Shown here: positions 1 through 10,639 of the stretch, one piece after another
Layout of the letters: every line of letters begins with the position of its first letter
Numbering within the stretch: the first letter of the stretch is position 1
Origin: a virus
Taxonomy: Duplodnaviria; Heunggongvirae; Uroviricota; Caudoviricetes
Virus record (IMG/VR): IMGVR_UViG_2660238215_000016
Coordinates: 1-10,639 of that record
Length of the DNA stretch: 10,639 bases
Strand: one strand, 5' to 3'
Made by a program: the position numbers and the translations under genes
Notes under the pieces: model-generated
Database searches by the model: none
Told to the model about the DNA's origin: nothing
The model's input: only the letters and a program-made list of their open reading frames with translations

Positions 1-291
1 CGGAAGGCCTTCACCATATGCCATGCTGTTTGACTGCCCCGCCAGAACCACAACAAAGTAATACTCCGGGTCTCTGGTGGCGCTGATTACTGTGCCTTCT
101 CCATCCGACGGCTTCACCAACACAGGTGTGGTGACATCACCTTCCGCCGCAATGGCCTGCATCAGAGTATAAGGCGTGATGGCCACCGGGCTGCCAAATG
201 GCTGCCACCCCTCCTTCAGTTTTTGTGTCAGCTTTTCCGCAAGATCTGACGGCGACGCCGCCCTGACCACATCGTAGTGTTTAAATACCAT
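1..291 (-). CDS. Partial CDS (N-terminal part; runs off left edge): NanS-p-like phage sialate O-acetylesterase (DUF1737-like N-terminus leading into SASA/SGNH domain)
   Basis: Minus-strand translation from ATG at 291 reads MVFKHYDVVRAASPSDLAEKLTQKLKEGWQPFGSPVAIT...VVVLAGQSNSMAYGEGLP; the GQSN block is the characteristic first motif of SASA/SGNH esterases. SD-like GGAAAAGG lies 3-5 nt upstream of ATG 291; an in-frame ATG at 306 (MVEKVMVF...) is an alternative start. Not in the ORF track because it is truncated by the window edge. Family assignment from memory of prophage NanS-p proteins. Confidence 0.5.
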   Translation of the reverse strand, partial: MVFKHYDVVRAASPSDLAEKLTQKLKEGWQPFGSPVAITPYTLMQAIAAEGDVTTPVLVKPSDGEGTVISATRDPEYYFVVVLAGQSNSMAYGEGLP

Positions 292-1382
292 GACCTTTTC
301 CACCATATAAAGGAACAATAAATTCTTTTCTGATAGAGATTTAAATAAAAATACATTATTTTACAAAAAAATAATATCCATTACAAAAACATCCGATTTT
401 TTTATATTCCCGCTCATCCTGCTAATTTGTATTACAAAAAAATGAAACAACTTGAACCAAAGTGATACAAAATTAGAAAAGAAAACCCCAGGAAGACAAA
501 GAAGACGATCTTTTTCAATGAGTTACACTGATTTATTGACTATGATTTTTAGCAAAACAATCGAAAGCAATGTGTACCGAGAAGGTTAAAAGATGGAATG
601 GATAGTTATTGACACAGTGATATGCCCATCAAGCGGAATAACGTTTTCAACTGTATGGTGTAAAATAAAGTTGATAATCTGGTATCAGTCAGATGTGTTC
701 CTGCCACCCGGAAGTATTCTCACACCTGTTAACTCAGGTGTGATTATGGATAATAAGCTGCTTCCATTAACCATTTACAACGTGACACCATTTAACAGAA
801 AATTCTGGTTCCTTATCAGAAATCAAAAAGAGTGCCCCGGGAATTCAGTTAAAACAAAAATAAAATGCCATAATAGTATGTGTGTACTGATGATATGCCC
901 GTATGGATTATATAAGTAACAACATATGAATACATAACAGATAAACTATTGACCTTGAGGCTCATCCATATAAAGAAGAGCTCTCCGAAGAGGTGTGTAT
1001 TTGCATGCACATTCCTTTTTTGCTCTATGTCATGACCTCCGGCGACTCTATCCCGGCACCAGCAAACCCGCATCATTCTCGTTTCCGGTGTCTCTAAAAC
1101 CACAGCACACCTGCCCCCCCGCTGAGGGAGGGAAGCACTGTATCCGTACACTCAGCAACAGAAATACCACCTGCTCACTGCGCTACATATCAGCAACAAT
1201 TTTATACCCGAACATTATCATTCAACAGCATGGTTCACAACAACATCATAACCCAGGAAACGAGAATCAGATCAAAAAAACAGAAATTTTACATGAAAAA
1301 TACTTTTTATTAATATTGATAGCGTCGTACCACAAAATACGATGAATTATCCCTGAACTTAACATTAATGCCAGTATGTATT

Positions 1383-1402
1383 GCCCGCTGGTATCAGCGG
1401 GC
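1383..1402. other. Perfect 8-bp GC-rich hairpin (GCCCGCTG-GTAT-CAGCGGGC) about 110 nt downstream of the methyltransferase gene
   Basis: Inverted repeat read directly from sequence. No clean U-tract on either strand, so it is an RNA-structure or processing candidate rather than a canonical intrinsic terminator. Confidence 0.4.
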
Positions 1403-1513
1403 GCTTTAAGAGATCGTATTCATGACTACCTGGGAAAAAGCTATTTTACTATTGTCAGTTTTTATTGCAGCCTTATCTGTCTACTTGCTTCACAGCCTGA
1501 ACTGACCATATCT

Positions 1514-2590
1514 TTATTCATCCTTCCCGTCATCAATTGAGCATGTAAGGATGTGACTAATCTCCTTAACGGTCTGCGCAAAACGTTCTGCCTCCAGTTC
1601 AACACCAGTTGCACGACGCCCGAGCGCCATAGCTGCTTTTATGGTTGAGCCAGAACCCATGAAAAAATCCGCCACCAGGTCACCCGGACGACTGCTCGCG
1701 CAGATTATCTGCCGCAGCATTTCTGCCGGTTTTTCGCACGGATGTTTCCCTGGATAGTACTGCACCGGTTTATGCGTCCACACATCGGTGTACGGCACCT
1801 GCACCGTCACACCGAAATACCGCCGCAAATTTTTATATTCACTCAGCAGTTCCATGTACTGTCGGTTCAGCTCACTGTATGTGCTGACCAGTTGGTAATG
1901 GGACTTTTCCAGTTCTCCCCGCTGATGTTTCTCTTCTGCCACCCGGGCAAACAGCGACTGTAATTTCAGATAATCGCTTTCGTTCGGTAGCTGCCACTGA
2001 CTGGCACTGAACCAGTGCGACACCATGTTTTTCTTTCCTGTGGCATCTGCAATCTGTTTTGCTGTTATCCCAAGAGCAGCACGCGCATCACGAAAGTAAG
2101 AAATCAGCGGGGCCATCACATGCTGTTTCAGTGCCCTGCCCTTCGCCTCATCGCCATCATCTTTCGGACGATACGGCCCCTGATAATGTTCCGCGAACAG
2201 AATGCGTTCTGTGGCCGGAAAATACGCCCGCAGGCTTTCCTTGTTGCACCCGTTCCAGCGTCCGGACGGCTTCGCCCAGATAATATGGTTCAGCACATTG
2301 AAGCGTTCACGCATCATGATTTCAATGTCAGATGCCAGGCGATGGTCACAGAACAGGTAAAGACTTCCGGCAGGTTTCAGCACCCGCCAGAACTGCGCCA
2401 GACACTGGTCCAGCCACTTCAGGTAATCATCGTCGCCCTTCCACTGGTTATCCCAGCCCTCGGGCTTCACTTTAAAGTATGGCGGGTCTGTGACTATCAG
2501 ATCGACAGAGTTTTCCGGTAAGGTCTGGATAAATTCCAGGCAATCAGCGTTGATTAACTCACAACTGGATATTTTTACAGTATTAAGCAT
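1514..2590 (-). CDS. Phage-encoded DNA methyltransferase (N6-adenine/N4-cytosine amino-methyltransferase, beta-class motif order)
   Basis: 358-aa ORF with ATG start. Motif IV DLIVTDPPY near the N-terminus and SAM-binding motif I FFMGSGST near the C-terminus (order IV then I). Position downstream of Q in the late transcript matches lambdoid prophage orphan methylases. Confidence 0.85.
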   Translation of the reverse strand: MLNTVKISSCELINADCLEFIQTLPENSVDLIVTDPPYFKVKPEGWDNQWKGDDDYLKWLDQCLAQFWRVLKPAGSLYLFCDHRLASDIEIMMRERFNVLNHIIWAKPSGRWNGCNKESLRAYFPATERILFAEHYQGPYRPKDDGDEAKGRALKQHVMAPLISYFRDARAALGITAKQIADATGKKNMVSHWFSASQWQLPNESDYLKLQSLFARVAEEKHQRGELEKSHYQLVSTYSELNRQYMELLSEYKNLRRYFGVTVQVPYTDVWTHKPVQYYPGKHPCEKPAEMLRQIICASSRPGDLVADFFMGSGSTIKAAMALGRRATGVELEAERFAQTVKEISHILTCSIDDGKDE

Positions 2591-2740
2591 GGATCATTAA
2601 GCCTGTCTCTGATAGGCTCATTCTGCTTTTGCGCAAAGCAGTGGGCCTGAGGTTTGCTTGTGAACCCAACGCATGAGCAGATGGCTGGTAGGTGCCCCTA
2701 ACACCCACCAGCCGCCCATTTACCACAAATAAAAAAGCCT

Positions 2741-2938
2741 TCACTGCGGAAGGCGTCTGTAACAACCGAACTGATAGTCTGCCAGACCCGCCATAACAAG
2801 CTGGGTCAGTATTAACTGGCAGCGTTCGCGTGAAAGGTAAGTATTCTGCGCAATCTCCCCGACTGTCGCCGGGTCGGTAACGCTTAATTCATTAAACACC
2901 ACTCTGGCGGTTTCTGTCATATCCTGCTGTTTTAGCAT
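2741..2938 (-). CDS. Small hypothetical phage protein (65 aa), possibly helix-turn-helix-like
   Basis: Intact ORF with ATG start and upstream AGGGAAAA SD-like sequence, same orientation as flanking phage genes, between the tR'-like terminator and the methyltransferase. No family recognised. Confidence 0.4.
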   Translation of the reverse strand: MLKQQDMTETARVVFNELSVTDPATVGEIAQNTYLSRERCQLILTQLVMAGLADYQFGCYRRLPQ

Positions 2939-3060
2939 GTCTTTTTTCCCTTTTGGTTAACGTGACATACCAATAACTCTTGTCCAAAAAGCCAGTAAGC
3001 AGAAAGACCGGTATTCGCAACCACCAGCGCATTTAACGCCCCGTGCCGTTTTTCAGTCAT

Positions 3061-3082
3061 AAAAAAACCCGCAAAAAGCGGG
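3061..3082 (-). terminator. Rho-independent terminator immediately downstream of the Q gene (tR'-like late-operon terminator)
   Basis: On the minus strand: stem CCCGC, loop TTTTT, stem GCGGG, followed by seven T (plus-strand A-run 3061-3067). It sits about 80 nt downstream of the Q stop codon, matching the lambda pR'-qut-tR' arrangement. Confidence 0.75.
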
Positions 3083-3161
3083 CTCTTTCAAATGTCCATG
3101 TCTGCTATTCGCCTCGCGGTACAGCTTTGCGAAGCTTACCGGAATTGAAGCAGTTTTTACG

Positions 3162-3728
3162 TCAAAAAGCAATAACTTTTTTCTCTATACCAAAAGCCAT
3201 AACCATTGGTTTGTACAAAATAAATTCTGCCACCTTTAGCCAATGCTCAATGCGTCTTTCACAGGTTCTTAAACTCCATTCCGGATGTGCATCATTCAGC
3301 AGTTCAGCCATTTTGCGCTTAGTCATCCCCCGCCCCACATAACGCTGACTCAGAACATTGAGCAGCCCGGGATAACCTGCCAGTACTTCACCAATAACCC
3401 TGTCGATTATTAACGCCTCTGAATCGGTACAATGTGCCAGCCAGCTTTTTTGATTGCCGTTGATCATATCCCGCAAAAAAGCCTCAAGTTCAGGTTTGTC
3501 CAGACCCGCTTTTTTCATCCTCCGGAGCGCCTCGTTAATTGCCGTTTTTGTCAGCTTTTTAGAGGTCAGTAATTGGTTGAACATATTTCCCGTCTTACCG
3601 TCGCCAATATACGACCAACGCCCCCACATACGCAGTTTCCCCTGGATCCAGACACTTTCCAGCGTTTTCAGGCGTAAATGCTCACCGCTTTTGCCTGTAA
3701 TTTCCGGGTATATCATATTTATGCTCAC
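3162..3728 (-). CDS. Q-like late-gene antitermination protein
   Basis: 188-aa ORF directly downstream of rusA (GTGA start/stop overlap at 3725-3728; in-frame ATG at 3716 is an alternative start) and directly upstream of a strong terminator. N-terminal region LRMWGRWS...FNQLLTSKKLTK resembles the WGAW...GLITSKVKSR region of 933W/82-type Q proteins (recalled, not searched). Synteny rusA-Q-terminator is typical. Confidence 0.6.
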   Translation of the reverse strand: MSINMIYPEITGKSGEHLRLKTLESVWIQGKLRMWGRWSYIGDGKTGNMFNQLLTSKKLTKTAINEALRRMKKAGLDKPELEAFLRDMINGNQKSWLAHCTDSEALIIDRVIGEVLAGYPGLLNVLSQRYVGRGMTKRKMAELLNDAHPEWSLRTCERRIEHWLKVAEFILYKPMVMAFGIEKKVIAF

Positions 3729-4084
3729 TCACTTTCAATTTTGTAAATCTTCACGCCCAGCCGCCCACCAGAAACGAGCTGACCGCGCACAATATTGATT
3801 TCATCAAACTGCTCGTCGTCTATGAGAAGTCCGGCATGCGTCAGCGCATCCAGCGGTGCTTTCAGGATATTGTCCAGATCACGACGGCGCTTATCCGGTG
3901 GCTCTGCAATAATCTTTATCGCCAGCCTTCCGGACAGGCTTAATTTCAGCCGCTGCTGGCGAACAATAAGCGCCACAGCCCGGCGATAACGCTTTCCCTC
4001 CTCCGAGATAAAATATGTGCTGCCACGGCGTCGCCAGTAAGTGTTCACCGTCGGCGGGTAAGGTAAAACCAAATCTATGAGCAT
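3725..4084 (-). CDS. rusA: RusA Holliday-junction resolvase (crossover junction endodeoxyribonuclease)
   Basis: 119-aa ORF. LPYPPTVNTYWRRRG...PDKRRRDLDNILKAPLDALTHAGLLIDDEQ matches the RusA family catalytic core (DRRRRDLDN / D-x-L motif region); length about 120 aa as in E. coli RusA. Good SD (AGAGGTGA) 5 nt upstream of ATG. Confidence 0.9.
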   Translation of the reverse strand: MLIDLVLPYPPTVNTYWRRRGSTYFISEEGKRYRRAVALIVRQQRLKLSLSGRLAIKIIAEPPDKRRRDLDNILKAPLDALTHAGLLIDDEQFDEINIVRGQLVSGGRLGVKIYKIESE

Positions 4085-4096
4085 CAGTCACCTCTT

Positions 4097-5146
4097 TTAC
4101 CCAAGCACGCCAGTTGCAAAGGCGTGATCAAGAAAACGAAAAATTAAATCAACCTGAGAGCCATGCTTTTCTTCGAACGCCAGCGGATCCGCATGAAGCT
4201 CGTTGTGATGCTCCCGACACAGCGGTAGCGTGAAAATATCGTGAGATTTTGTCCCCATTCCGCCCTGACCATGACCAATCAGGTGATGGGGATCGTCGGC
4301 TGGCTTACCACAACACGCACACGGCTGAGTCTTCACCCAGCGTGTGTATTTCTCGTTAACCCAGCGGCGACGTTTAGGTCGTTTCATGAAAGATTCCGGA
4401 GACTCAGGATCAACGGCAATGCTGACCACCGTCTTTTCCTGTGGTGGGTTCTGTTGCTGGTGGACGTCAGGCAGTAACGCAATATTTTTTGTGCGCTGCT
4501 TCAGTATGCTGGTGGCGGTCTGCTCTCCCGGCACGATGTCGCTTTCACGGTACATTGAGCGGATTTTTTCCGCACGCACCCCCAGCGAACGACGTAATAC
4601 CGCTTCCGGTAGCGCGTCCGCCACCTGATTGCGGACCGCCCACCAGGATAATTCAGCCAAAGATAATTCACGCTCCTGCGTACCGCTTATTGCGTGACCG
4701 ATGACGTCAATCATCCATGCTGACAGGTTTTGATGAGCAAGTTGCTCGAGTGATTCGGATGTCTGGTCACGCAGCTGGTTGTCGCAGTGCCAGCACAACA
4801 CCATTGCGCCGGTACCATAACGGTGAATGACAGTTTCGCTGTGATGATAATCGCCGTGTGGCCACTGGCAGGATTTCACGTGACGCAACAGCCAGTCAGA
4901 CAATGCACCAGCACCACCAGCAGCACGAATCACCCGTGCGTTACTGAAAAACGGCAGCAATGTTTTGTCTTCCACCAGCGGCTGGCGAACGGCAGGAACG
5001 ACCCCGGACGGCAGATTACGCATGCTTTTCGGTTCCGGCTCCATCAATACCCGGGTATTGTGGAATACTGGCATGGATTCACGGCCCGGCTTAACGATCA
5101 CCAGCCCGAGTTCCGGTACCAGAACAGGTCGAAGTAATACCCGCAC
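4097..5146 (-). CDS. DUF968 family prophage protein (YdfU-like) with C-terminal Cys/His-rich HNH-like region
   Basis: 349-aa ORF, the same length as K-12 Qin YdfU from memory. C-terminus CACCGKPADDPHHLIGHGQGGMGTKSHDIFTLPLCREHHNELH is a Cys/His cluster typical of DUF968. Lies in the conserved position upstream of rusA. Confidence 0.75.
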   Translation of the reverse strand: MRVLLRPVLVPELGLVIVKPGRESMPVFHNTRVLMEPEPKSMRNLPSGVVPAVRQPLVEDKTLLPFFSNARVIRAAGGAGALSDWLLRHVKSCQWPHGDYHHSETVIHRYGTGAMVLCWHCDNQLRDQTSESLEQLAHQNLSAWMIDVIGHAISGTQERELSLAELSWWAVRNQVADALPEAVLRRSLGVRAEKIRSMYRESDIVPGEQTATSILKQRTKNIALLPDVHQQQNPPQEKTVVSIAVDPESPESFMKRPKRRRWVNEKYTRWVKTQPCACCGKPADDPHHLIGHGQGGMGTKSHDIFTLPLCREHHNELHADPLAFEEKHGSQVDLIFRFLDHAFATGVLG

Positions 5147-5147
5147 G

Positions 5148-5426
5148 TTACCTCCAGATGCGTTGCTGGAATGTGCGAGACGGACGCGGTGGGCGTTCAG
5201 AGTAAGGAAGCCTGACGGAGATTATCCAGTGACGGTAGTCGAGACTAAGGGCTTTCTTAACCTCGTATCCGCGCCTGCGGTAACACTGAATTATCCATTC
5301 AGCCTGCTCTTCAGTACATGGAGGGTGTTGGAACCATTCAGACTTGAATGCGTGAGAATACCGCTCGTGCGTGCAGGCAAGAACGGGCGAATTATCAGAA
5401 TTGTAATATTTTACGTTGCGTGCCAT
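5148..5426 (-). CDS. Hypothetical phage protein (92 aa), tightly coupled to the downstream DUF968 gene
   Basis: ATG start with GGAGAA SD about 7 nt upstream; its stop codon is 1 nt from the start codon of the 4097..5146 gene. No family recognised. Confidence 0.55.
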   Translation of the reverse strand: MARNVKYYNSDNSPVLACTHERYSHAFKSEWFQHPPCTEEQAEWIIQCYRRRGYEVKKALSLDYRHWIISVRLPYSERPPRPSRTFQQRIWR

Positions 5427-5492
5427 CGGTTTTCTCCGGTGGCACGGTGTTACTCAGCGGGAGTTCAGCCCCGCGCAAGATTGTAGATGAGT

Positions 5493-5744
5493 TTATTCTT
5501 CTGCAAAAGCTGAAAAGCCTGCTTTTATTCCGATCTCTTTCAGTGCCTGTAATGAAGTGACAAACTCACCTTCGCGCAAGATAAATCCGTCTGTCACTCG
5601 ACCATCCACAAAATTAATTAACGCAGCCCCATTCTTTCGCAAACACATAATGCGGTAATGACTAACAAGATTTCCATTTTCAACGCACACAGCATAGAGG
5701 CCATCTTCACAAAAAATTTTACGCAGTTCTTCGATGTTCATCAT
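5493..5744 (-). CDS. Small prophage protein, Rem-like (83 aa)
   Basis: ATG start with GGAAGGA SD. Length and position (between hokD and the ydfU-like gene) match the Qin prophage rem gene; assigned by synteny and length from memory, not by sequence comparison. Confidence 0.55.
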   Translation of the reverse strand: MMNIEELRKIFCEDGLYAVCVENGNLVSHYRIMCLRKNGAALINFVDGRVTDGFILREGEFVTSLQALKEIGIKAGFSAFAEE

Positions 5745-5860
5745 CAGAATCCTTCCGGATAATTAGCTCTCCCCTTTAAGGGACCATCCCTCTTATCCCT
5801 GCGCGCTACTTAAGTATTTTTGATTCTATTCCGGCGCCGTCCAGAACTTCAAACGCGTTG

Positions 5861-5891
5861 AAAATAAAAACAAAAACCCGCCGAAGCGGGT
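5861..5891 (-). terminator. Rho-independent terminator at the 3' end of the hok mRNA (fbi/terminator region)
   Basis: Minus strand: hairpin ACCCGC-TTCG-GCGGGT followed by TTTTGTTTTTATTTT, about 70 nt downstream of the hok stop codon. Confidence 0.65.
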
Positions 5892-5960
5892 TAAGTGCGG
5901 GTGCGTTGAGGATGCCTGCCACATCAGAGGTGGCGAGGGATTTCTCCCTCGCCGGGTCTC

Positions 5961-6116
5961 TTACTCCTCAGGTTCGTAAGCTGTGAAGACAGCGACCTCC
6001 GTCTGGCCGGTTCGGATTCGTACCTCGCAGAGGTCTTTCCTCGTTACCAGTGCCGTCACTATGACGGTTAAACAGATGACGATCAGGGCGATTAACATCG
6101 CCTTTTGCTGCTTCAT
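5961..6116 (-). CDS. hokD: Hok-family type I toxin (HokD/RelF-type small membrane toxin)
   Basis: 51-aa translation MKQQKAMLIALIVICLTVIVTALVTRKDLCEVRIRTGQTEVAVFTAYEPEE matches HokD as I recall it; AAGGAG SD about 9 nt upstream of ATG at 6116. Confidence 0.9.
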   Translation of the reverse strand: MKQQKAMLIALIVICLTVIVTALVTRKDLCEVRIRTGQTEVAVFTAYEPEE

Positions 6117-6173
6117 AGCCTGCTTCTCCTTGCCTTTCGGCACGTAAGAGGCTAACCTACATGTGTCTAGCAT
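5961..6173 (-). CDS. mok-like overlapping reading frame (modulator of killing) through which hok translation is coupled
   Basis: 70-aa ORF starting at ATG 6173 and co-terminal with hok (MLDTCRLASYVPKGKEKQA-MKQQK...), the same architecture as mok/hok in plasmid R1 hok/sok. Confidence 0.5.
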   Translation of the reverse strand: MLDTCRLASYVPKGKEKQAMKQQKAMLIALIVICLTVIVTALVTRKDLCEVRIRTGQTEVAVFTAYEPEE

Positions 6174-6200
6174 GAAATTGGCCTCAGATTAATGTTAAGC
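6135..6200 (+). ncRNA. Predicted Sok-like antisense RNA region (coordinates approximate)
   Basis: Placed by analogy with R1 hok/sok, where Sok is antisense to the hok leader around the mok SD and start. Here the mok ATG is at 6171-6173 and the tac-like 5' element of the hok mRNA (GCTTGAGGCTATCTGTCTCA on the minus strand) lies near 6265-6285. Promoter and ends not confidently read. Confidence 0.3.
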
Positions 6201-6291
6201 GTCTTGCAGGACGCGTAATGTTAACTGGGGCTTTTCTCTATCTGCCTTTGGTGTTCATGCCTGAGACAGATAGCCTCAAGCACCCGCAGCC

Positions 6292-6320
6292 ATTCTACTT
6301 AACTCCCGTTACCCCGCCAA
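6292..6320 (-). promoter_or_regulatory. Putative sigma70 promoter of the hok/mok mRNA
   Basis: Minus strand: -35 TTGGCG (6315-6320), 17-nt spacer, -10 TAGAAT (6292-6297), immediately upstream of the tac-like GCTTGAGGCT leader element. Confidence 0.4.
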
Positions 6321-6429
6321 TATGAAATCAGTCAGAAAGGCGATCCATAAGAATAATGAATTCTGTAAGGCAATAGTCTCACTGTCTAACATATCTTACC
6401 TGATTACTTTACAATATAATAATTCATAG

Positions 6430-7065
6430 TTAAATCAAATGAATGTCATCATCCAATAATTCATTAGTAGTAATACTACCTTTTTTGAAAAAATTTTCAT
6501 TTGCCTCAGCAATTTTTGCATCATTAACAAATTCATCACACATCCCAAAATAATGAAAAAATCTATTTAGTTTACATATTCCAATGGTATAGTGCCCTTT
6601 AGGTGTTTTGTCCACATAAACACGATTTGCTTTTATAATATGCATCTCATAATCATCTATATGTGGATGAACGATGCGAAATGATGCAGATGCAGTTGGA
6701 TAGTTTTTGCGCCGCCCCCCATTTATTACGGGTTCAAATAACACTTCATTTTTACCTTTGAATTCATTGCAGTCAGGACATACTACACATAGATTCTTAG
6801 GTTCAAAAATAAAACATAGATATTGAGATTTTGGCACAATATGCTCTATAGGAGCAGCTTGTGCAGCTCTTACCCCAATAGGCTCATGACAATATACACA
6901 TTCTAGCTTTTGTTCTTCTCTGTAATGATTTCTAATTTCTGCACGGAGAACTTGCAAATCATCATCTCCCCAGTTGGTATGCTTAAAATCTGGAGAAGAC
7001 AATTTTTTCTCAATAATATCTAATGACTCTGCGCTGAATCTAATTGGATTTTTAATTTTTGGCAT
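6430..7065 (-). CDS. HNH endonuclease, PtuB-like (downstream gene of a Septu-like ATPase+HNH pair)
   Basis: His-Me finger read from translation: CVYCHE ... EHIVPKS ... CVVCPDCNEFKGKN (CxxC...H...N...CxxC). ATG at 7065 with AGGTG upstream; the ORF track start (7074) is an in-frame GTG. Overlaps the upstream ATPase gene by 14 nt (23 nt with the GTG start). Strongly AT-rich by eye. Confidence 0.8.
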   Translation of the reverse strand: MPKIKNPIRFSAESLDIIEKKLSSPDFKHTNWGDDDLQVLRAEIRNHYREEQKLECVYCHEPIGVRAAQAAPIEHIVPKSQYLCFIFEPKNLCVVCPDCNEFKGKNEVLFEPVINGGRRKNYPTASASFRIVHPHIDDYEMHIIKANRVYVDKTPKGHYTIGICKLNRFFHYFGMCDEFVNDAKIAEANENFFKKGSITTNELLDDDIHLI

Positions 7066-8425
7066 AAATTTCACACACCTGAGATACGGAATTTACGAGT
7101 TCATTAATAGGGTCATTACTATTAACGTTTTCAAGGAGAAGCTGGAGTTGTTTTAATTCACGCCAATTATCATCTGTTACTAACTTAGCAGTCTTAACTT
7201 TTGAAAGTAAATTGAAAGCTAATCTGGCAATGTATTCATTCATAATGCCAGGGGCATCAAATAGTTCCGCAAGTTGATAGTCTGCAGACCGGTTGCTAAA
7301 GTATTTTGCTTTATAAAGATAACTTTTCGACAAAGATGTTATATAACAACCTTTATTCGGCAAATTGGATATTATTTGTGGTGAATGAGTTGCAATTATG
7401 AATTGACAACCTGAGTAAGTTAAAAATGCTTTTGTTAACATAATGATAAACTCTTCCTGCCATCGAGGATGCAAGCTTATTTCCGGTTCATCAATTAGTA
7501 TTATAGAACCATCAGTTATATGCCCTGCAATTCCAAGCAACATCACTAATAAACATTGTTCTCCCGAGCTCGCACGTTTAAGTGACATGGGACCATAGCT
7601 TTTTTTTATGAGTCGCATATCCATCAATCTCATGAAGCCAGCGTTCATAAGTTTAAGAATTGATCTAGAAAAATAATTATTCGCATAAGTCGAGCCAACC
7701 AATGTTTCACCATTGGTAAAATCGACTGACAAGGTTACAGCCCTACGTTCAGGTTCAAATCGATTAATTTCAACCAGTGCTTCGTAAATATCATGACGTG
7801 ATTCGGAGTTTAACTTTAAGAGACTCTCAATATTCTTCCTGTCAATTTTTATATTGTATTTTAAATATAACTCCTTAACTTCCGTTAATATCTCATCTGA
7901 ATATACACCAATGAAGTTATAGTCAGGAGTGTCCGGTCCGTTGTAAGTTGGTTTAAATACAAACTCTATATGGGGCTCAAAATCAATAGAATGAAAAACA
8001 TCGAGTAAATTTGCAGGATTTTCTGAATAAGCAAGTTTCTCTAGCCAACCTCTCGCTGCTGAAGATAAAAGGGATACGGCATTTGATACGCCGAAGGGGC
8101 CTTCTCCACGCATACCCACATAGCGATAATTATTTTCTTTCCTTTGGTGATTTAATGACCTACGCCCTGGAGGGAATTTATCGAATGGGCTGGTAGATAC
8201 GGCAATTAACTTTGGTGTTATTTCTCTGTCAAATAATGGATTAAAAGTTTTCAAGAAATGAACATCTTGAATACAGTCTTTAGCAATCTGAGATAACAAT
8301 CTGCTTTTTCCAACGCCATTTTTACCTACAATTACTGTAAAAATATTCGCATTATCAGAAACATCACCTTCTATAGCAAGTTTTAAGGTTCGACTATCAT
8401 GATGGGTATAATATAGTCTTTTCAT
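7052..8425 (-). CDS. ABC-type (AAA_15/AAA_21-like) ATPase, PtuA-like (upstream gene of a Septu-like pair)
   Basis: 457-aa ORF with Walker A GKNGVGKS near the N-terminus, ABC-signature-like SSGEQ, Walker B IILIDEPE and H-loop IIATHSP near the C-terminus. This spacing is typical of OLD/PtuA/AriA-type ABC ATPases. AT-rich; overlaps the downstream HNH gene. Confidence 0.85.
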   Translation of the reverse strand: MKRLYYTHHDSRTLKLAIEGDVSDNANIFTVIVGKNGVGKSRLLSQIAKDCIQDVHFLKTFNPLFDREITPKLIAVSTSPFDKFPPGRRSLNHQRKENNYRYVGMRGEGPFGVSNAVSLLSSAARGWLEKLAYSENPANLLDVFHSIDFEPHIEFVFKPTYNGPDTPDYNFIGVYSDEILTEVKELYLKYNIKIDRKNIESLLKLNSESRHDIYEALVEINRFEPERRAVTLSVDFTNGETLVGSTYANNYFSRSILKLMNAGFMRLMDMRLIKKSYGPMSLKRASSGEQCLLVMLLGIAGHITDGSIILIDEPEISLHPRWQEEFIIMLTKAFLTYSGCQFIIATHSPQIISNLPNKGCYITSLSKSYLYKAKYFSNRSADYQLAELFDAPGIMNEYIARLAFNLLSKVKTAKLVTDDNWRELKQLQLLLENVNSNDPINELVNSVSQVCEIYAKN

Positions 8426-8481
8426 TTTATTTTTCTCTCATTAAAATGCTCTTAATTAAGAATACCTATGCCTTTAACAGG

Positions 8482-8510
8482 CTCATAGTTATGATTTGTG
8501 ATGCTTTCAA
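8482..8510 (-). promoter_or_regulatory. Putative sigma70 promoter for the ATPase-HNH operon
   Basis: Minus strand: -35 TTGAAA (8505-8510), 17-nt spacer, -10 TATGAG (8482-8487), about 55 nt upstream of the ATPase ATG, in an AT-rich leader. Confidence 0.3.
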
Positions 8511-8809
8511 AAGGGTATGTAACTAAGTATTGAACTCTACACCTAAGATTCTAAGATTTTTAAATTAAAGTAGTTAAACATGCTTTTGATTGTACTCATT
8601 CTATGTCCATCGTTGCTGCATGTCTAGATATCGTGCCCCGCTATTGTTATGTAATGATATGATGGACGCCCTGTCTGAAGCAGCCAGTGAAATATTTTTA
8701 CTGTCTGCGTTTTCTACAGGAGTAAATCACATGAGCACAATCAGAGTTGTTGGTATTGATATTGACCTGTGCCCAATTTTTTGAGACATATATTGGTACG
8801 CTCTTGGCA

Positions 8810-8831
8810 CAGGGCTGCTGCTGCAGCCCTG
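8810..8831. other. Strong 9-bp hairpin (CAGGGCTGC-TGCT-GCAGCCCTG) immediately downstream of the recombinase fragment
   Basis: Perfect inverted repeat read from sequence; no adjacent U-tract. May be a terminator-like structure or a recombination/attachment-site remnant. Confidence 0.4.
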
Positions 8832-8837
8832 ACAGCT

Positions 8838-9083
8838 TTAGACTTCGATCGATTCAGAGATCTCTAATGCATCATCAACTTCTATACCCAGATAACGAAC
8901 TGTGCTTTCCGTTTTCTTATGGCCCAACGGAAGTTGGATCACCCGGAGATTCTTAGTTTTCTTGCAGACAAGGCAAGGTTTTGTTCTTCTCATGGAATGT
9001 GTGCTGTAAAGCGAATCTTCGAGACCAAGCTTTTCTCCCCCCTATGAAAGATTCGGTTATATTGCAGGATTGATATGTGTTGG
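8838..9083 (-). pseudogene. C-terminal fragment of a tyrosine recombinase/integrase (truncated remnant)
   Basis: Minus-strand frame translates to ...FHRGGEKLGLEDSLYSTHSMRRTKPCLVCKKTKNLRVIQLPLGHKKTESTVRYLGIEVDDALEISESIEV*, carrying the C-terminal catalytic signature H-x-x-R ... LGH ... T-x-R-Y. Only about 80 codons are open (stop at 9084-9086), and a full-length integrase cannot fit before the 280-aa gene, so it is a truncated relic. Different frames in the neighbouring 8953..9135 and 9206..9406 ORFs are consistent with decay. Confidence 0.45.
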
Positions 9084-9463
9084 TTAGTACCGACCCGAGA
9101 TCGGAACAAGTAGTCTTTACTGCGTAAATTGCCAAGCTTTATCAATGCAGAAACAGCTTCTCTTGTCCCTTTGGTTATCTCAAATTGGATAGGACTGCCA
9201 GTTTTTCAGTTGCAGCACCGTAGCTCTGCTTGAAACCGAGCTAAATCACGCGTTTTACCTTCCAGTTCAAGCCGGATTTGGAGCCCCCAGATATGAGATA
9301 TCTGAAGTGGTCTTTTTGGGCCTATGATACTGTCTTTGTTCCTCGGTGACGTATTCATACTCAAATCTCCTGCAATGTGGAAGATTTGAGTATGGTTGTC
9401 TCTCAAGAGCGAAATAGGTCAACTATAACTAGTTGTTGTGCATGTACGAATTCTGCCAATTAA

Positions 9464-10306
9464 TTATTGACAATAAAAAATTCTGGAATGTTCGAAATCA
9501 TCATATCGAATTATAATCTGGTTGACTGCATCTATTGTTGGCGCCATTTCAGTTATAATATCTCGATAACCTAAAGAGTTAAATACATTTACTAAGGCCT
9601 CACACCGCAGGCCAATAGCAATTACGACATTATAAATTGCCAGCCGTTTATTTTCTTGTTTAACTGCAAGAGTGAGTTCGATAGCAGTAGTTTTATCGCT
9701 TTGGATTGCATTATATAGAGATACTATATTTGCCATATCATCAGAGAATGTATGTATTGAATCACAAAGAGGGACGTAATAGGCATGATAGTGTGTTTCC
9801 CAGCCAATTACTTCGAAAAGCTTTTTGGTTCCAGGATATTCAGGTGTATTTGGCCACAATCTATTAAACATATCAGTTAGCTCTTTTCCGATACGAATCC
9901 TTTCATCTGCTGCTGGATTAGTCATTTCTTTGGATTTTAAACACTCCAGCCACCGTTTCCCATTACTATGAACTAATTTCTTACTACCCTTGAGTAATGC
10001 TTGTGCATTTTTTCCATCATCAATTGCTATATAAAATTGATTGGCAGCCTGTTCCATTATAACTCTAGTTAATACTTCCGATGCTGAAAAGGCTCCGGTA
10101 CTCAAAGAAAATATAGCCTGATTACTAAGTTCATTCAGTACATTAAAGTAATGTAAAACCATCAATTTTTGTTCCACCCCCTTTAGGTTATCTATTTTAT
10201 CTTTATGCCTCTCAAATTTCGCATGGATATATTTATTTATCGCGGCTATTTTTTTTACATCTTCGTCGAAATCAAACGGGCAACGTCCAAACGATTTTTT
10301 CCTCAT
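9464..10306 (-). CDS. Hypothetical protein (280 aa), unrecognised family; accessory/defence-island cargo
   Basis: Long intact ORF with ATG start, near-consensus SD (AGGAGG, 6-nt spacing) and a perfect -10 TATAAT at 10345-10350 upstream. AT-rich like the ATPase/HNH genes. No motifs I can assign with confidence. Confidence 0.75.
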   Translation of the reverse strand: MRKKSFGRCPFDFDEDVKKIAAINKYIHAKFERHKDKIDNLKGVEQKLMVLHYFNVLNELSNQAIFSLSTGAFSASEVLTRVIMEQAANQFYIAIDDGKNAQALLKGSKKLVHSNGKRWLECLKSKEMTNPAADERIRIGKELTDMFNRLWPNTPEYPGTKKLFEVIGWETHYHAYYVPLCDSIHTFSDDMANIVSLYNAIQSDKTTAIELTLAVKQENKRLAIYNVVIAIGLRCEALVNVFNSLGYRDIITEMAPTIDAVNQIIIRYDDFEHSRIFYCQ

Positions 10307-10344
10307 ATATTCCTCCTGTTTTACAATCTCCCATAAGTTGGAAA

Positions 10345-10350
10345 ATTATA
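10345..10350 (-). promoter_or_regulatory. Putative -10 element (TATAAT) of the promoter for the 280-aa gene
   Basis: Perfect TATAAT on the minus strand about 40 nt upstream of the ATG; the candidate -35 (TTATTT, 17-nt spacer) is weak. Confidence 0.35.
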
Positions 10351-10568
10351 CACTGGAGATTACCTATAAATAACTGCGCACGATAGCTAGTCAGTGCAAG
10401 AAGTACAACCAAGTGAACGGTGCGTATCAGATACCTAGCTTAAAGTTCGCGATAGCCGTACTCTGTGTATTAGCTCAGACATTACCTGACAGGTTGAGTA
10501 GATAGAATCGAATCAAAGCTGACAGTCTGGTTTGGACTGTGGGGTCAACCGATGGATGCAACACACAG

Positions 10569-10639
10569 TGAACCGCCCCGGAAATCCTGGAGACTAAACT
10601 CCCTGAGAAAGAGGTAAACAGGATGACTAAAAATACTCG
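10569..10639 (+). mobile_element. Left end (terminal inverted repeat and leader) of an IS3-family insertion sequence, IS629/IS1203-like; continues beyond the window
   Basis: TGAACCGCCCCGGAAATCCTGGAGACTAAACTCCCTGAGAAAGAGGTAAACAGG followed by ATGACTAAAAATACTCG matches, from memory, the IS629/IS1203 left terminus and orfA start (MTKNTRF...). IS3-family ends begin with TG. Confidence 0.7.
10623..10639 (+). CDS. Partial CDS: IS3-family transposase OrfA, N-terminus only (MTKNT...)
   Basis: ATG at 10623 preceded by GAGG SD inside the IS left end; truncated by the window edge. Confidence 0.6.

Follow-up and report, generated by a model that had tools for sequence, protein, structure and literature searches.

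The founding Bacillus Septu systems, described in 2018 by Doron and coworkers, reportedly define the family as an ATPase with AAA_15/AAA_21 domains followed by an HNH nuclease. Here we describe a gene pair of this kind, ptuA and ptuB, in a stretch of viral DNA of 10,639 nucleotides (Caudoviricetes; IMG/VR record IMGVR_UViG_2660238215_000016, positions 1 to 10,639; the whole stretch is referred to below as the window). The pair very probably constitutes an intact anti-phage system of the stand-alone (type I) Septu kind, which a lambdoid prophage of Escherichia coli carries as cargo. On sequence comparison it is a third, distant E. coli Septu lineage, with less than 30% local identity to the PtuAB proteins that have been assayed or structurally solved. 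PtuAB substrates vary by lineage and range from ATP-inhibited plasmid nicking to single-stranded DNA and tRNA-Tyr (PMC12640716, PMC12819146): ATP-inhibited DNA nicking belongs to the system of strain ATCC 25922, tRNA-Tyr to EcB88 and retron-Eco7, and single-stranded DNA to retron-Eco4. Neither substrate nor trigger can be transferred from these systems to the lineage described here. The EcSeptu complex contains PtuA and PtuB in a 6:2 ratio and is inhibited by ATP (PMC12640716).

The Septu PtuAB of E. coli ATCC 25922 (PDB 8EE4, 8EE7, 8EEA, 8SUX; structures of Li et al. 2024, as cited in PMC12640716 and PMC12819146) is likewise a stand-alone two-gene system in which the ATPase precedes the HNH protein, and its chains in the solved structures (465 and 243 residues) are similar in length to the 457 and 211 amino acids (aa) encoded in the window. 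Of the PDB chains, its PtuB comes closest in structure to the modelled PtuB of the window, aligned over all 211 residues and with the C-terminal H-x-H and L-N motifs in alignment, and the predicted fold of the PtuA of the window is consistent with that of its PtuA, although the structure-based identity for PtuA/PtuB is only 12–22%. Both CxxC zinc pairs are present in the PtuB of the window, whereas the aligned 8ee7 sequence is without them. The fifth position of the ATPase signature is Glu (SSGEQ) in the window compared to the reported Leu in ATCC 25922 PtuA, a protein that is reported to lack ATPase activity (PMC12819146).

Septu EcB88, also a stand-alone E. coli PtuAB (452 and 219 aa; sequences WP_000981116.1 and WP_016243072.1, taken from Supplementary Data 8 of PMC13096335), cleaves tRNA-Tyr in its variable loop, needs K43 and D316 (Walker A and B), H75 and N91, and is active from its native promoter (PMC13096335). 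It falls under other PADLOC sub-models (PDLC00271/PDLC00344) and has a strong match to the retron model ATPase_I-A (E 8e-107). The mutant numbering used in bioRxiv 2022.08.21.504612 (K43, D316/E317, H321; PtuB K6, H75) fits the EcB88 type. A close kinship to EcB88, as the shared numbering of H75 and N91 might suggest, was considered and rejected, the agreement being a coincidence by direct comparison. The effectors of Retron-Eco7 (Ec78) and Retron-Eco4 (Ec83) are also pairs of an ABC ATPase and an HNH protein and provide the best profile matches for PtuB of the window (E 1e-5 and 3.8e-5). However, they require a reverse transcriptase and multicopy single-stranded DNA (msDNA) as antitoxin or sensor, neither of which is present here, and the retron PtuA proteins, with 542–552 aa, carry extra msDNA- and reverse transcriptase-binding elements compared to the 457-aa protein of the window.

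The two genes, the junction between them and the residues discussed below are as follows:

7052..8425, minus strand: ptuA, 457 aa from an ATG start, an ABC/SMC-like ATPase
6430..7065, minus strand: ptuB, 211 aa from ATG, an HNH (beta-beta-alpha-metal) nuclease
7052..7080, minus strand: candidate translational-coupling junction, with the ptuB ATG (7065-7063) within the end of ptuA, the ptuA stop codon at 7054-7052 and the Shine-Dalgarno sequence AGGTG at 7080-7076
PtuA residues: Walker A G34-S41 (K40); signature S286-Q290; Walker B D312/E313; D-loop H319; H-loop H347
PtuB residues: zinc ligands C56/C59/C96/C99; catalytic H75, N91 and N100; C-terminal H133-P-H135-x-D137 and L166-N-R168

A reading of this DNA made from the letters alone (the sequence-only reading) had proposed a co-oriented, overlapping pair in the Septu order, PtuA then PtuB, located in low-GC DNA of a lambdoid prophage. 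Both genes lie on the minus strand, and with the ATG start of ptuB they overlap by 14 nt (7052-7065), which suggests that their translation is coupled. For ptuB, a GTG codon offers an alternative start (6430-7074, 214 aa), with the ATG in the same frame three codons further on. The ATG is the likely start because the Shine-Dalgarno sequence AGGTG lies 10 nt before it as the sequence reads and only 1 nt from the GTG, because the RefSeq length of the product is 211 aa, and because the aligned PtuB homologues all open with MP.I. The GC content is 35.2% in ptuA (0.28 at third codon positions, GC3) and 33.2% in ptuB (GC3 0.21), about 34% overall, compared to 50.2% in the adjacent phage genes at 1514-6357, in line with the low GC noted in the sequence-only reading. 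At the local base composition, the chance of an open frame is 2.7e-16 for 457 codons and 6.5e-8 for 211 codons. Every ATPase and HNH motif quoted in that reading was located: GKNGVGKS at residue 34, SSGEQ at 286, IILIDEPE at 308 and IIATHSP at 343 of PtuA, and CVYCHE at 56, EHIVPKS at 74 and CPDCNEFKG at 96 of PtuB. The notion that PtuA keeps a canonical signature glutamine was dropped, as the aligned fifth position is Glu (SSGEQ compared to L-S-G-G-E).

Profile searches assign both proteins to Septu over nearly their full lengths. PtuA matches the PADLOC PtuA model PDLC00283 with E 1.2e-165 and 550 bits (profile positions 3-447 of 448), and PtuB matches the PADLOC PtuB model PDLC00325 with E 1.1e-83 (positions 2-205 of 213). 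Pfam finds AAA_21 (74.3 bits, cutoff 27) and AAA_15 (61.6 bits, cutoff 32.1) in PtuA and HNH (23.9 bits, cutoff 21.4) in PtuB. These matches support the core of the sequence-only reading. Since existing PADLOC models (PDLC00283/PDLC00325) cover the pair, the lineage is already catalogued and is neither a new kind nor a new variant of system. The suggestion of a divergent or uncharacterised subtype therefore holds in one respect, as the pair is distant from all assayed or solved PtuABs, and fails in the other, as it is not uncatalogued. The proteins had also been described as short for the family, and this has to be corrected: the best profiles have 448 and 213 positions, the studied E. coli Septu proteins 452 and 219 aa, and the solved chains 465 and 243 residues.

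Other ABC-ATPase defence families share part of this ATPase, and the pair could in principle belong to one of them (PARIS with AriA/AriB, AbiL, OLD/Gabija or PDC-M01) instead of Septu. The best match in a single-sequence PDB search with PtuA is PARIS AriA (PDB 8UX9, 8V45; E 1.6e-12), which has in common with PtuA the C-terminal lobe of the ABC ATPase, including the DEPEISLH Walker B/D-loop, and the PADLOC models for AriA, AbiLi, PDC-M01A and the retron ATPase_I-A also match in part. However, the AriA similarity spans only about 75 residues, and these PADLOC matches are confined to the Walker B/signature lobe (about residues 270-360; 225-354 for the AriA models) with 63–97 bits, compared to 550 bits for the full-length PtuA match. 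The partner gene encodes an HNH protein that matches PtuB over its full length, whereas AriB (the TOPRIM protein of PARIS), AbiLii and OLD belong to the TOPRIM/DUF4435 proteins. We consider membership in one of these families exceedingly unlikely.

The assignment to Septu is further supported by the conservation of the pair across genera. At E ≤ 1e-10, a search of the database yielded scores for 1541 relatives of PtuA. Of these, the 120 that were listed range from 292 to 491 aa (mostly about 440–470), and those with names are mostly from Gammaproteobacteria; the 120 listed PtuB relatives range from 162 to 226 aa (mostly about 195–225) and often come from contigs shared with PtuA relatives. PtuA homologues with 42–90% identity are encoded just ahead of an overlapping HNH gene in Pseudomonas aeruginosa, Dickeya dadantii, Methylobacter, Klebsiella variicola and an enterobacterial assembly, with different neighbouring genes each time. 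The co-oriented order of ptuA then ptuB is kept in six independent contexts, and the overlap measures 14–20 nt in the pairs of Pseudomonas aeruginosa, Dickeya, Methylobacter and Klebsiella. In 39 aligned PtuA sequences of the same 42–90% identity range, residues G34-S41, S286-Q290, D312-E315, H319 and T346-Q350 do not vary, and neither do C56, C59, H75, N91, C96, C99, N100, H133-P-H135-x-D137 and L166-N-R168 of PtuB in 41 aligned sequences.

The same contexts bear on the relation to retrons. The pair might be the effector module of a type I-A retron ("type II Septu") whose reverse transcriptase and non-coding RNA were lost or lie elsewhere, in which case the pair alone would be toxic or inert. 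No reverse transcriptase was found among the open reading frames (ORFs) of the window, in the flanking annotations of genomes identical to it or beside the ptuAB homologues in five other contexts, and Rfam matches no non-coding RNA in the window other than sok. The scores for the NCBIfam equivalogs of retron-Ec78 (NF041760/NF041761) fall far below their cutoffs (PtuA 65.8 compared to 500; PtuB 30.5 compared to 150), the PADLOC ATPase_I-A match is limited to residues 307-364 of PtuA, and the 457-aa protein is without the N-terminal extension of about 90 residues seen in the 542–552-aa retron PtuAs. A retron origin of this sort is barely conceivable. Because no reverse transcriptase is nearby, we assign the pair to stand-alone, type I Septu.

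The predicted structures are compatible with this assignment. AlphaFold2 models built with family alignments have a predicted local distance difference test score (pLDDT) of 82.8 for PtuA and 79.6 for PtuB. In a Foldseek search of the PDB, PtuA chains (retron-Eco7, retron-Ec83, and E. coli Septu 8EEA/8EE4/8SUX) account for all of the best 50 matches to the PtuA model with probability 1.0, yet with template modelling (TM) scores of only 0.2–0.35 and 12–18% identity; the best match to the PtuB model is E. coli Septu PtuB (8eea_G), with TM 0.47 across all 211 residues. A search with the PtuB family profile found 8ee7_C (E 0.0099) in an alignment that reaches the C-terminal domain and in which H-x-H and L-N are aligned. 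At the C terminus of the PtuA model, residues 392-456 form three helices, and the PtuB model is likewise helical toward its C terminus (155-203). In solved complexes, two PtuA tails clamp one PtuB in a nine-helix PtuA2:PtuB bundle (PMC12819146), and the modelled helices would fit such an arrangement. The evidence from the predicted folds is consistent with Septu and is not the deciding argument.

DNA alignments among bacteria delimit the following elements around the pair:

6359..8788, minus strand: portable ptuAB cassette, a 2.4-kb unit common to other bacteria by DNA alignment
8598..8626, minus strand: promoter-like site with 10 of 12 consensus matches (TAGACA-17 nt-TAGAAT), about 170 nt upstream of the ptuA start
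8426..8597, minus strand: 5' leader from the promoter-like site to the ptuA start, which aligns over most of its length between the window and loci L017 and L015

The segment 6359-8788 aligns at 89% DNA identity to loci L017 and L018, where it is located in an unrelated defence island with Mrr-like, VspR and helicase genes, and 6417-8632 aligns at 85% to the Klebsiella variicola locus (L015/L016). The homology with other lambdoid prophages (L012, L013) ends at 6357, which fixes this cassette junction to within 1–2 bp. Between genomes, ptuAB travels as a unit of 2.4 kb. Searches for terminal repeats at the cassette ends gave only short matches of chance size, and no intrinsic terminator was found downstream of ptuB. 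The promoter-like site at 8598-8626 is likely the native ptuAB promoter by its sequence: although a consensus scan found no more promoter-like sites in the region than in shuffled sequence, both hexamers are kept in the cassettes of L017 and of Klebsiella L015. The unit 6430-8520 that was earlier proposed to include the native promoter is consequently too short, as the conserved site falls outside it. At the edge of the conserved cassette, in a region conserved in L017 too, lies a 17-codon ORF, MSTIRVVGIDIDLCPIF (8731-8784, plus strand), divergent from ptuA and with a strong AGGAG Shine-Dalgarno sequence 8 nt upstream. This ORF could be what is left of a gene that once lay next to the cassette.

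Among 5426 complete E. coli genomes, 19 carry the 2.5-kb ptuAB region, with 99.5–100% identity. The carriers include the enteropathogenic E. coli (EPEC) strain E2348/69, where RefSeq labels the products "AAA family ATPase" and "HNH endonuclease", and window positions 1-10593 are 99.9% identical to strain 2013C-4974. Among plasmid records, the sole full-length match is NZ_CP148379.1 (8,461 bp). This record comes from a single-cell E. coli assembly and is labelled a plasmid, although it more probably represents a fragment that was left unplaced. In 50,697 phage genomes, megablast found no trace of the cassette and tblastn gave only two partial, distant matches; the cassette is therefore undocumented in any sequenced free phage.

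Such a distribution raises the question of whether the cassette, intact in sequence, might be silent or decaying cargo of a defective prophage. Its rarity (the 19 genomes above), a frameshifted integrase gene in the island, IS3 and IS481 insertions in relatives, and a promoter for which the evidence is a consensus match all point in that direction. On the other hand, both ORFs are intact in all 19 carriers, with the near-identity given above. Nei–Gojobori ratios of nonsynonymous to synonymous substitution rates (dN/dS), estimated against three relatives, are 0.13–0.17 for ptuA and 0.15–0.22 for ptuB (0.14–0.22 against relatives 85–90% identical) and therefore indicate purifying selection on both genes. 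In addition, the promoter-like site and the leader are kept in independent contexts. We conclude that silent or decaying cargo is a very unlikely description of this cassette.

Several observations weigh against an intact and working Septu system. Decay and numerous insertion sequence (IS) elements mark the host prophage, so expression is not assured, and the case for the promoter consists of the consensus match and its conservation. The sequence similarity to every studied Septu or retron PtuAB is weak: ATCC 25922 PtuA (8ee4) matches PtuA of the window with E 3e-7 over about 55 residues around Walker B only, EcB88 PtuA has 29% identity over just 139 aa, and EcB88 PtuB is not alignable to PtuB of the window by BLASTP. 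A single-sequence PDB search with PtuB gave no match, so that the family profile was required, and the E-value of its best Foldseek match is only 3.7e-3, which keeps the structural searches from being decisive. In the literature, we found no paper citing the RefSeq accessions, no Septu paper mentioning E2348/69 and no assay of this lineage.

If the pair works as other PtuABs do, PtuA would oligomerise, and pairs of its three C-terminal helices would clamp the helical C-terminal domain of PtuB, such that the clamped nuclease would stay inactive in uninfected cells. An infection cue would then alter the state of the ATPase and release or activate PtuB; for other lineages, a drop in ATP has been reported as such a cue, as has a structural protein or a nuclease of the phage. 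Active PtuB would cut nucleic acid, and both phage replication and host growth would stop. We see it as a real possibility, though short of an even chance, that the lineage uses an infection cue or a nucleic-acid target different from those of the three studied PtuAB lineages. This could be so because local identity with all of them is below 30%, because a full zinc-finger HNH domain and the Rad50/SMC-like S-G-E signature are kept, and because the invariant H-P-H-x-D and L-N-R of the PtuB C terminus could set the choice of substrate. The system is of modest importance. It represents a rare third Septu lineage of E. coli and occurs in E2348/69, the prototype EPEC strain. Nevertheless, a distant and compact PtuAB with mapped cassette limits and a candidate promoter could help reveal what determines trigger and substrate.

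The setting of the cassette in a Qin-like prophage agrees with the claim of a lambdoid prophage made in the sequence-only reading. From ptuB toward low coordinates, the neighbours are hok/sok, rem, a DUF968 gene, rusA, a Q-like antiterminator and an orphan methyltransferase gene, and a gene for replication protein P is also found among the surrounding prophage genes. The slot upstream of hokD (window 5961-6357 compared with L011, L012, L013 and L014) is variable among Qin-like lambdoid prophages and is occupied as follows:

K-12 Qin: relBE
strain AMSCJX03: an AIPR protein matching AbiU
strain VTB96959v: a DUF4209 protein matching the PADLOC candidate PDC-S39
strain elppa5: small unrelated genes

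The variability of this slot between strains supports the view that the pair occupies a cargo position in the prophage, and the interchangeable slot, which looks like a hotspot, could be mined for more cargo.

The surroundings also suggest a different role, in which the pair would serve mainly to keep the prophage in place by addiction or as a selfish module, with a nuclease toxin restrained by the ATPase and without meaningful protection from phages. The cassette adjoins the post-segregational killing locus hok/sok, the slot holds relBE in K-12 Qin, and the PtuAB of retron-Eco7 is toxic once free of its antitoxin (PMC12640716). Other occupants of the slot, however, match abortive-infection or candidate defence models, and stand-alone Septu of two other lineages protects against phage from native promoters (PMC13096335; bioRxiv 2022.08.21.504612). 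Moreover, addiction and defence roles can coexist. A mainly addictive role for ptuAB, with no meaningful protection from phages, is very unlikely, and we retain the anti-phage Septu system as the preferred interpretation.

The features that flank the cassette in the window are as follows:

6111-6285: sok, by Rfam with 118 bits compared to a gathering score of 59
8838..9358, minus strand: tyrosine-recombinase (integrase) pseudogene, frameshifted and with an internal stop, directly upstream of the ptuAB cassette and outside the portable unit
9464..10306, minus strand: DUF5677 gene, intact, 280 aa, 35% GC, with a full-length match to phrog_4167 (function unknown)
about 10594-10639: terminus of an IS3-family element, of which only the terminal 46–75 nt or so are inside the window

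The earlier placement of the pair between hok/sok and an IS element is correct on one side, where sok is recognised by Rfam and hokD is annotated in genomes identical to the window. On the other side, the neighbours are the decayed integrase gene and then the DUF5677 gene, and the IS3 end comes only at the far edge of the window. In the recombinase pseudogene, the last ORF fragment has kept LGH...T..Y, the motif of the C terminus. After the stop of the pseudogene, at about 8808-8836, comes a hairpin rich in GC (CAGGGCTGC/GCAGCCCTG).

The DUF5677 protein has no PADLOC match. In E. coli its gene always occurs with this ptuAB, in one prophage lineage, and it is absent beside the ptuAB homologues elsewhere. 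For this reason we rejected it as a Septu component; the gene may represent uncharacterised cargo of its own. IS3 copies flank ptuAB in related E. coli (L019, L020, L022), both in the interval between the DUF5677 gene and ptuA and in that between ptuB and hok, and their presence on both sides marks the island as a target region for IS3. In E2348/69, an IS481-family element (L001 10888-11976, corresponding to window positions of about 6125-6130) is located just upstream of the hokD coding sequence, within the hok/sok leader. This insertion, which is absent from the window, probably disrupts hok/sok in that strain.

The orphan methyltransferase gene (1514-2590, minus strand), located downstream of the Q-like gene, encodes an N6/N4 DNA methyltransferase that matches the PADLOC model MTase_II with E 1.5e-160, and no nuclease partner for it was found nearby. 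Further toward the low end of the window, an AT-rich patch contains the gene for the anti-adapter iraM (593-919, plus strand).

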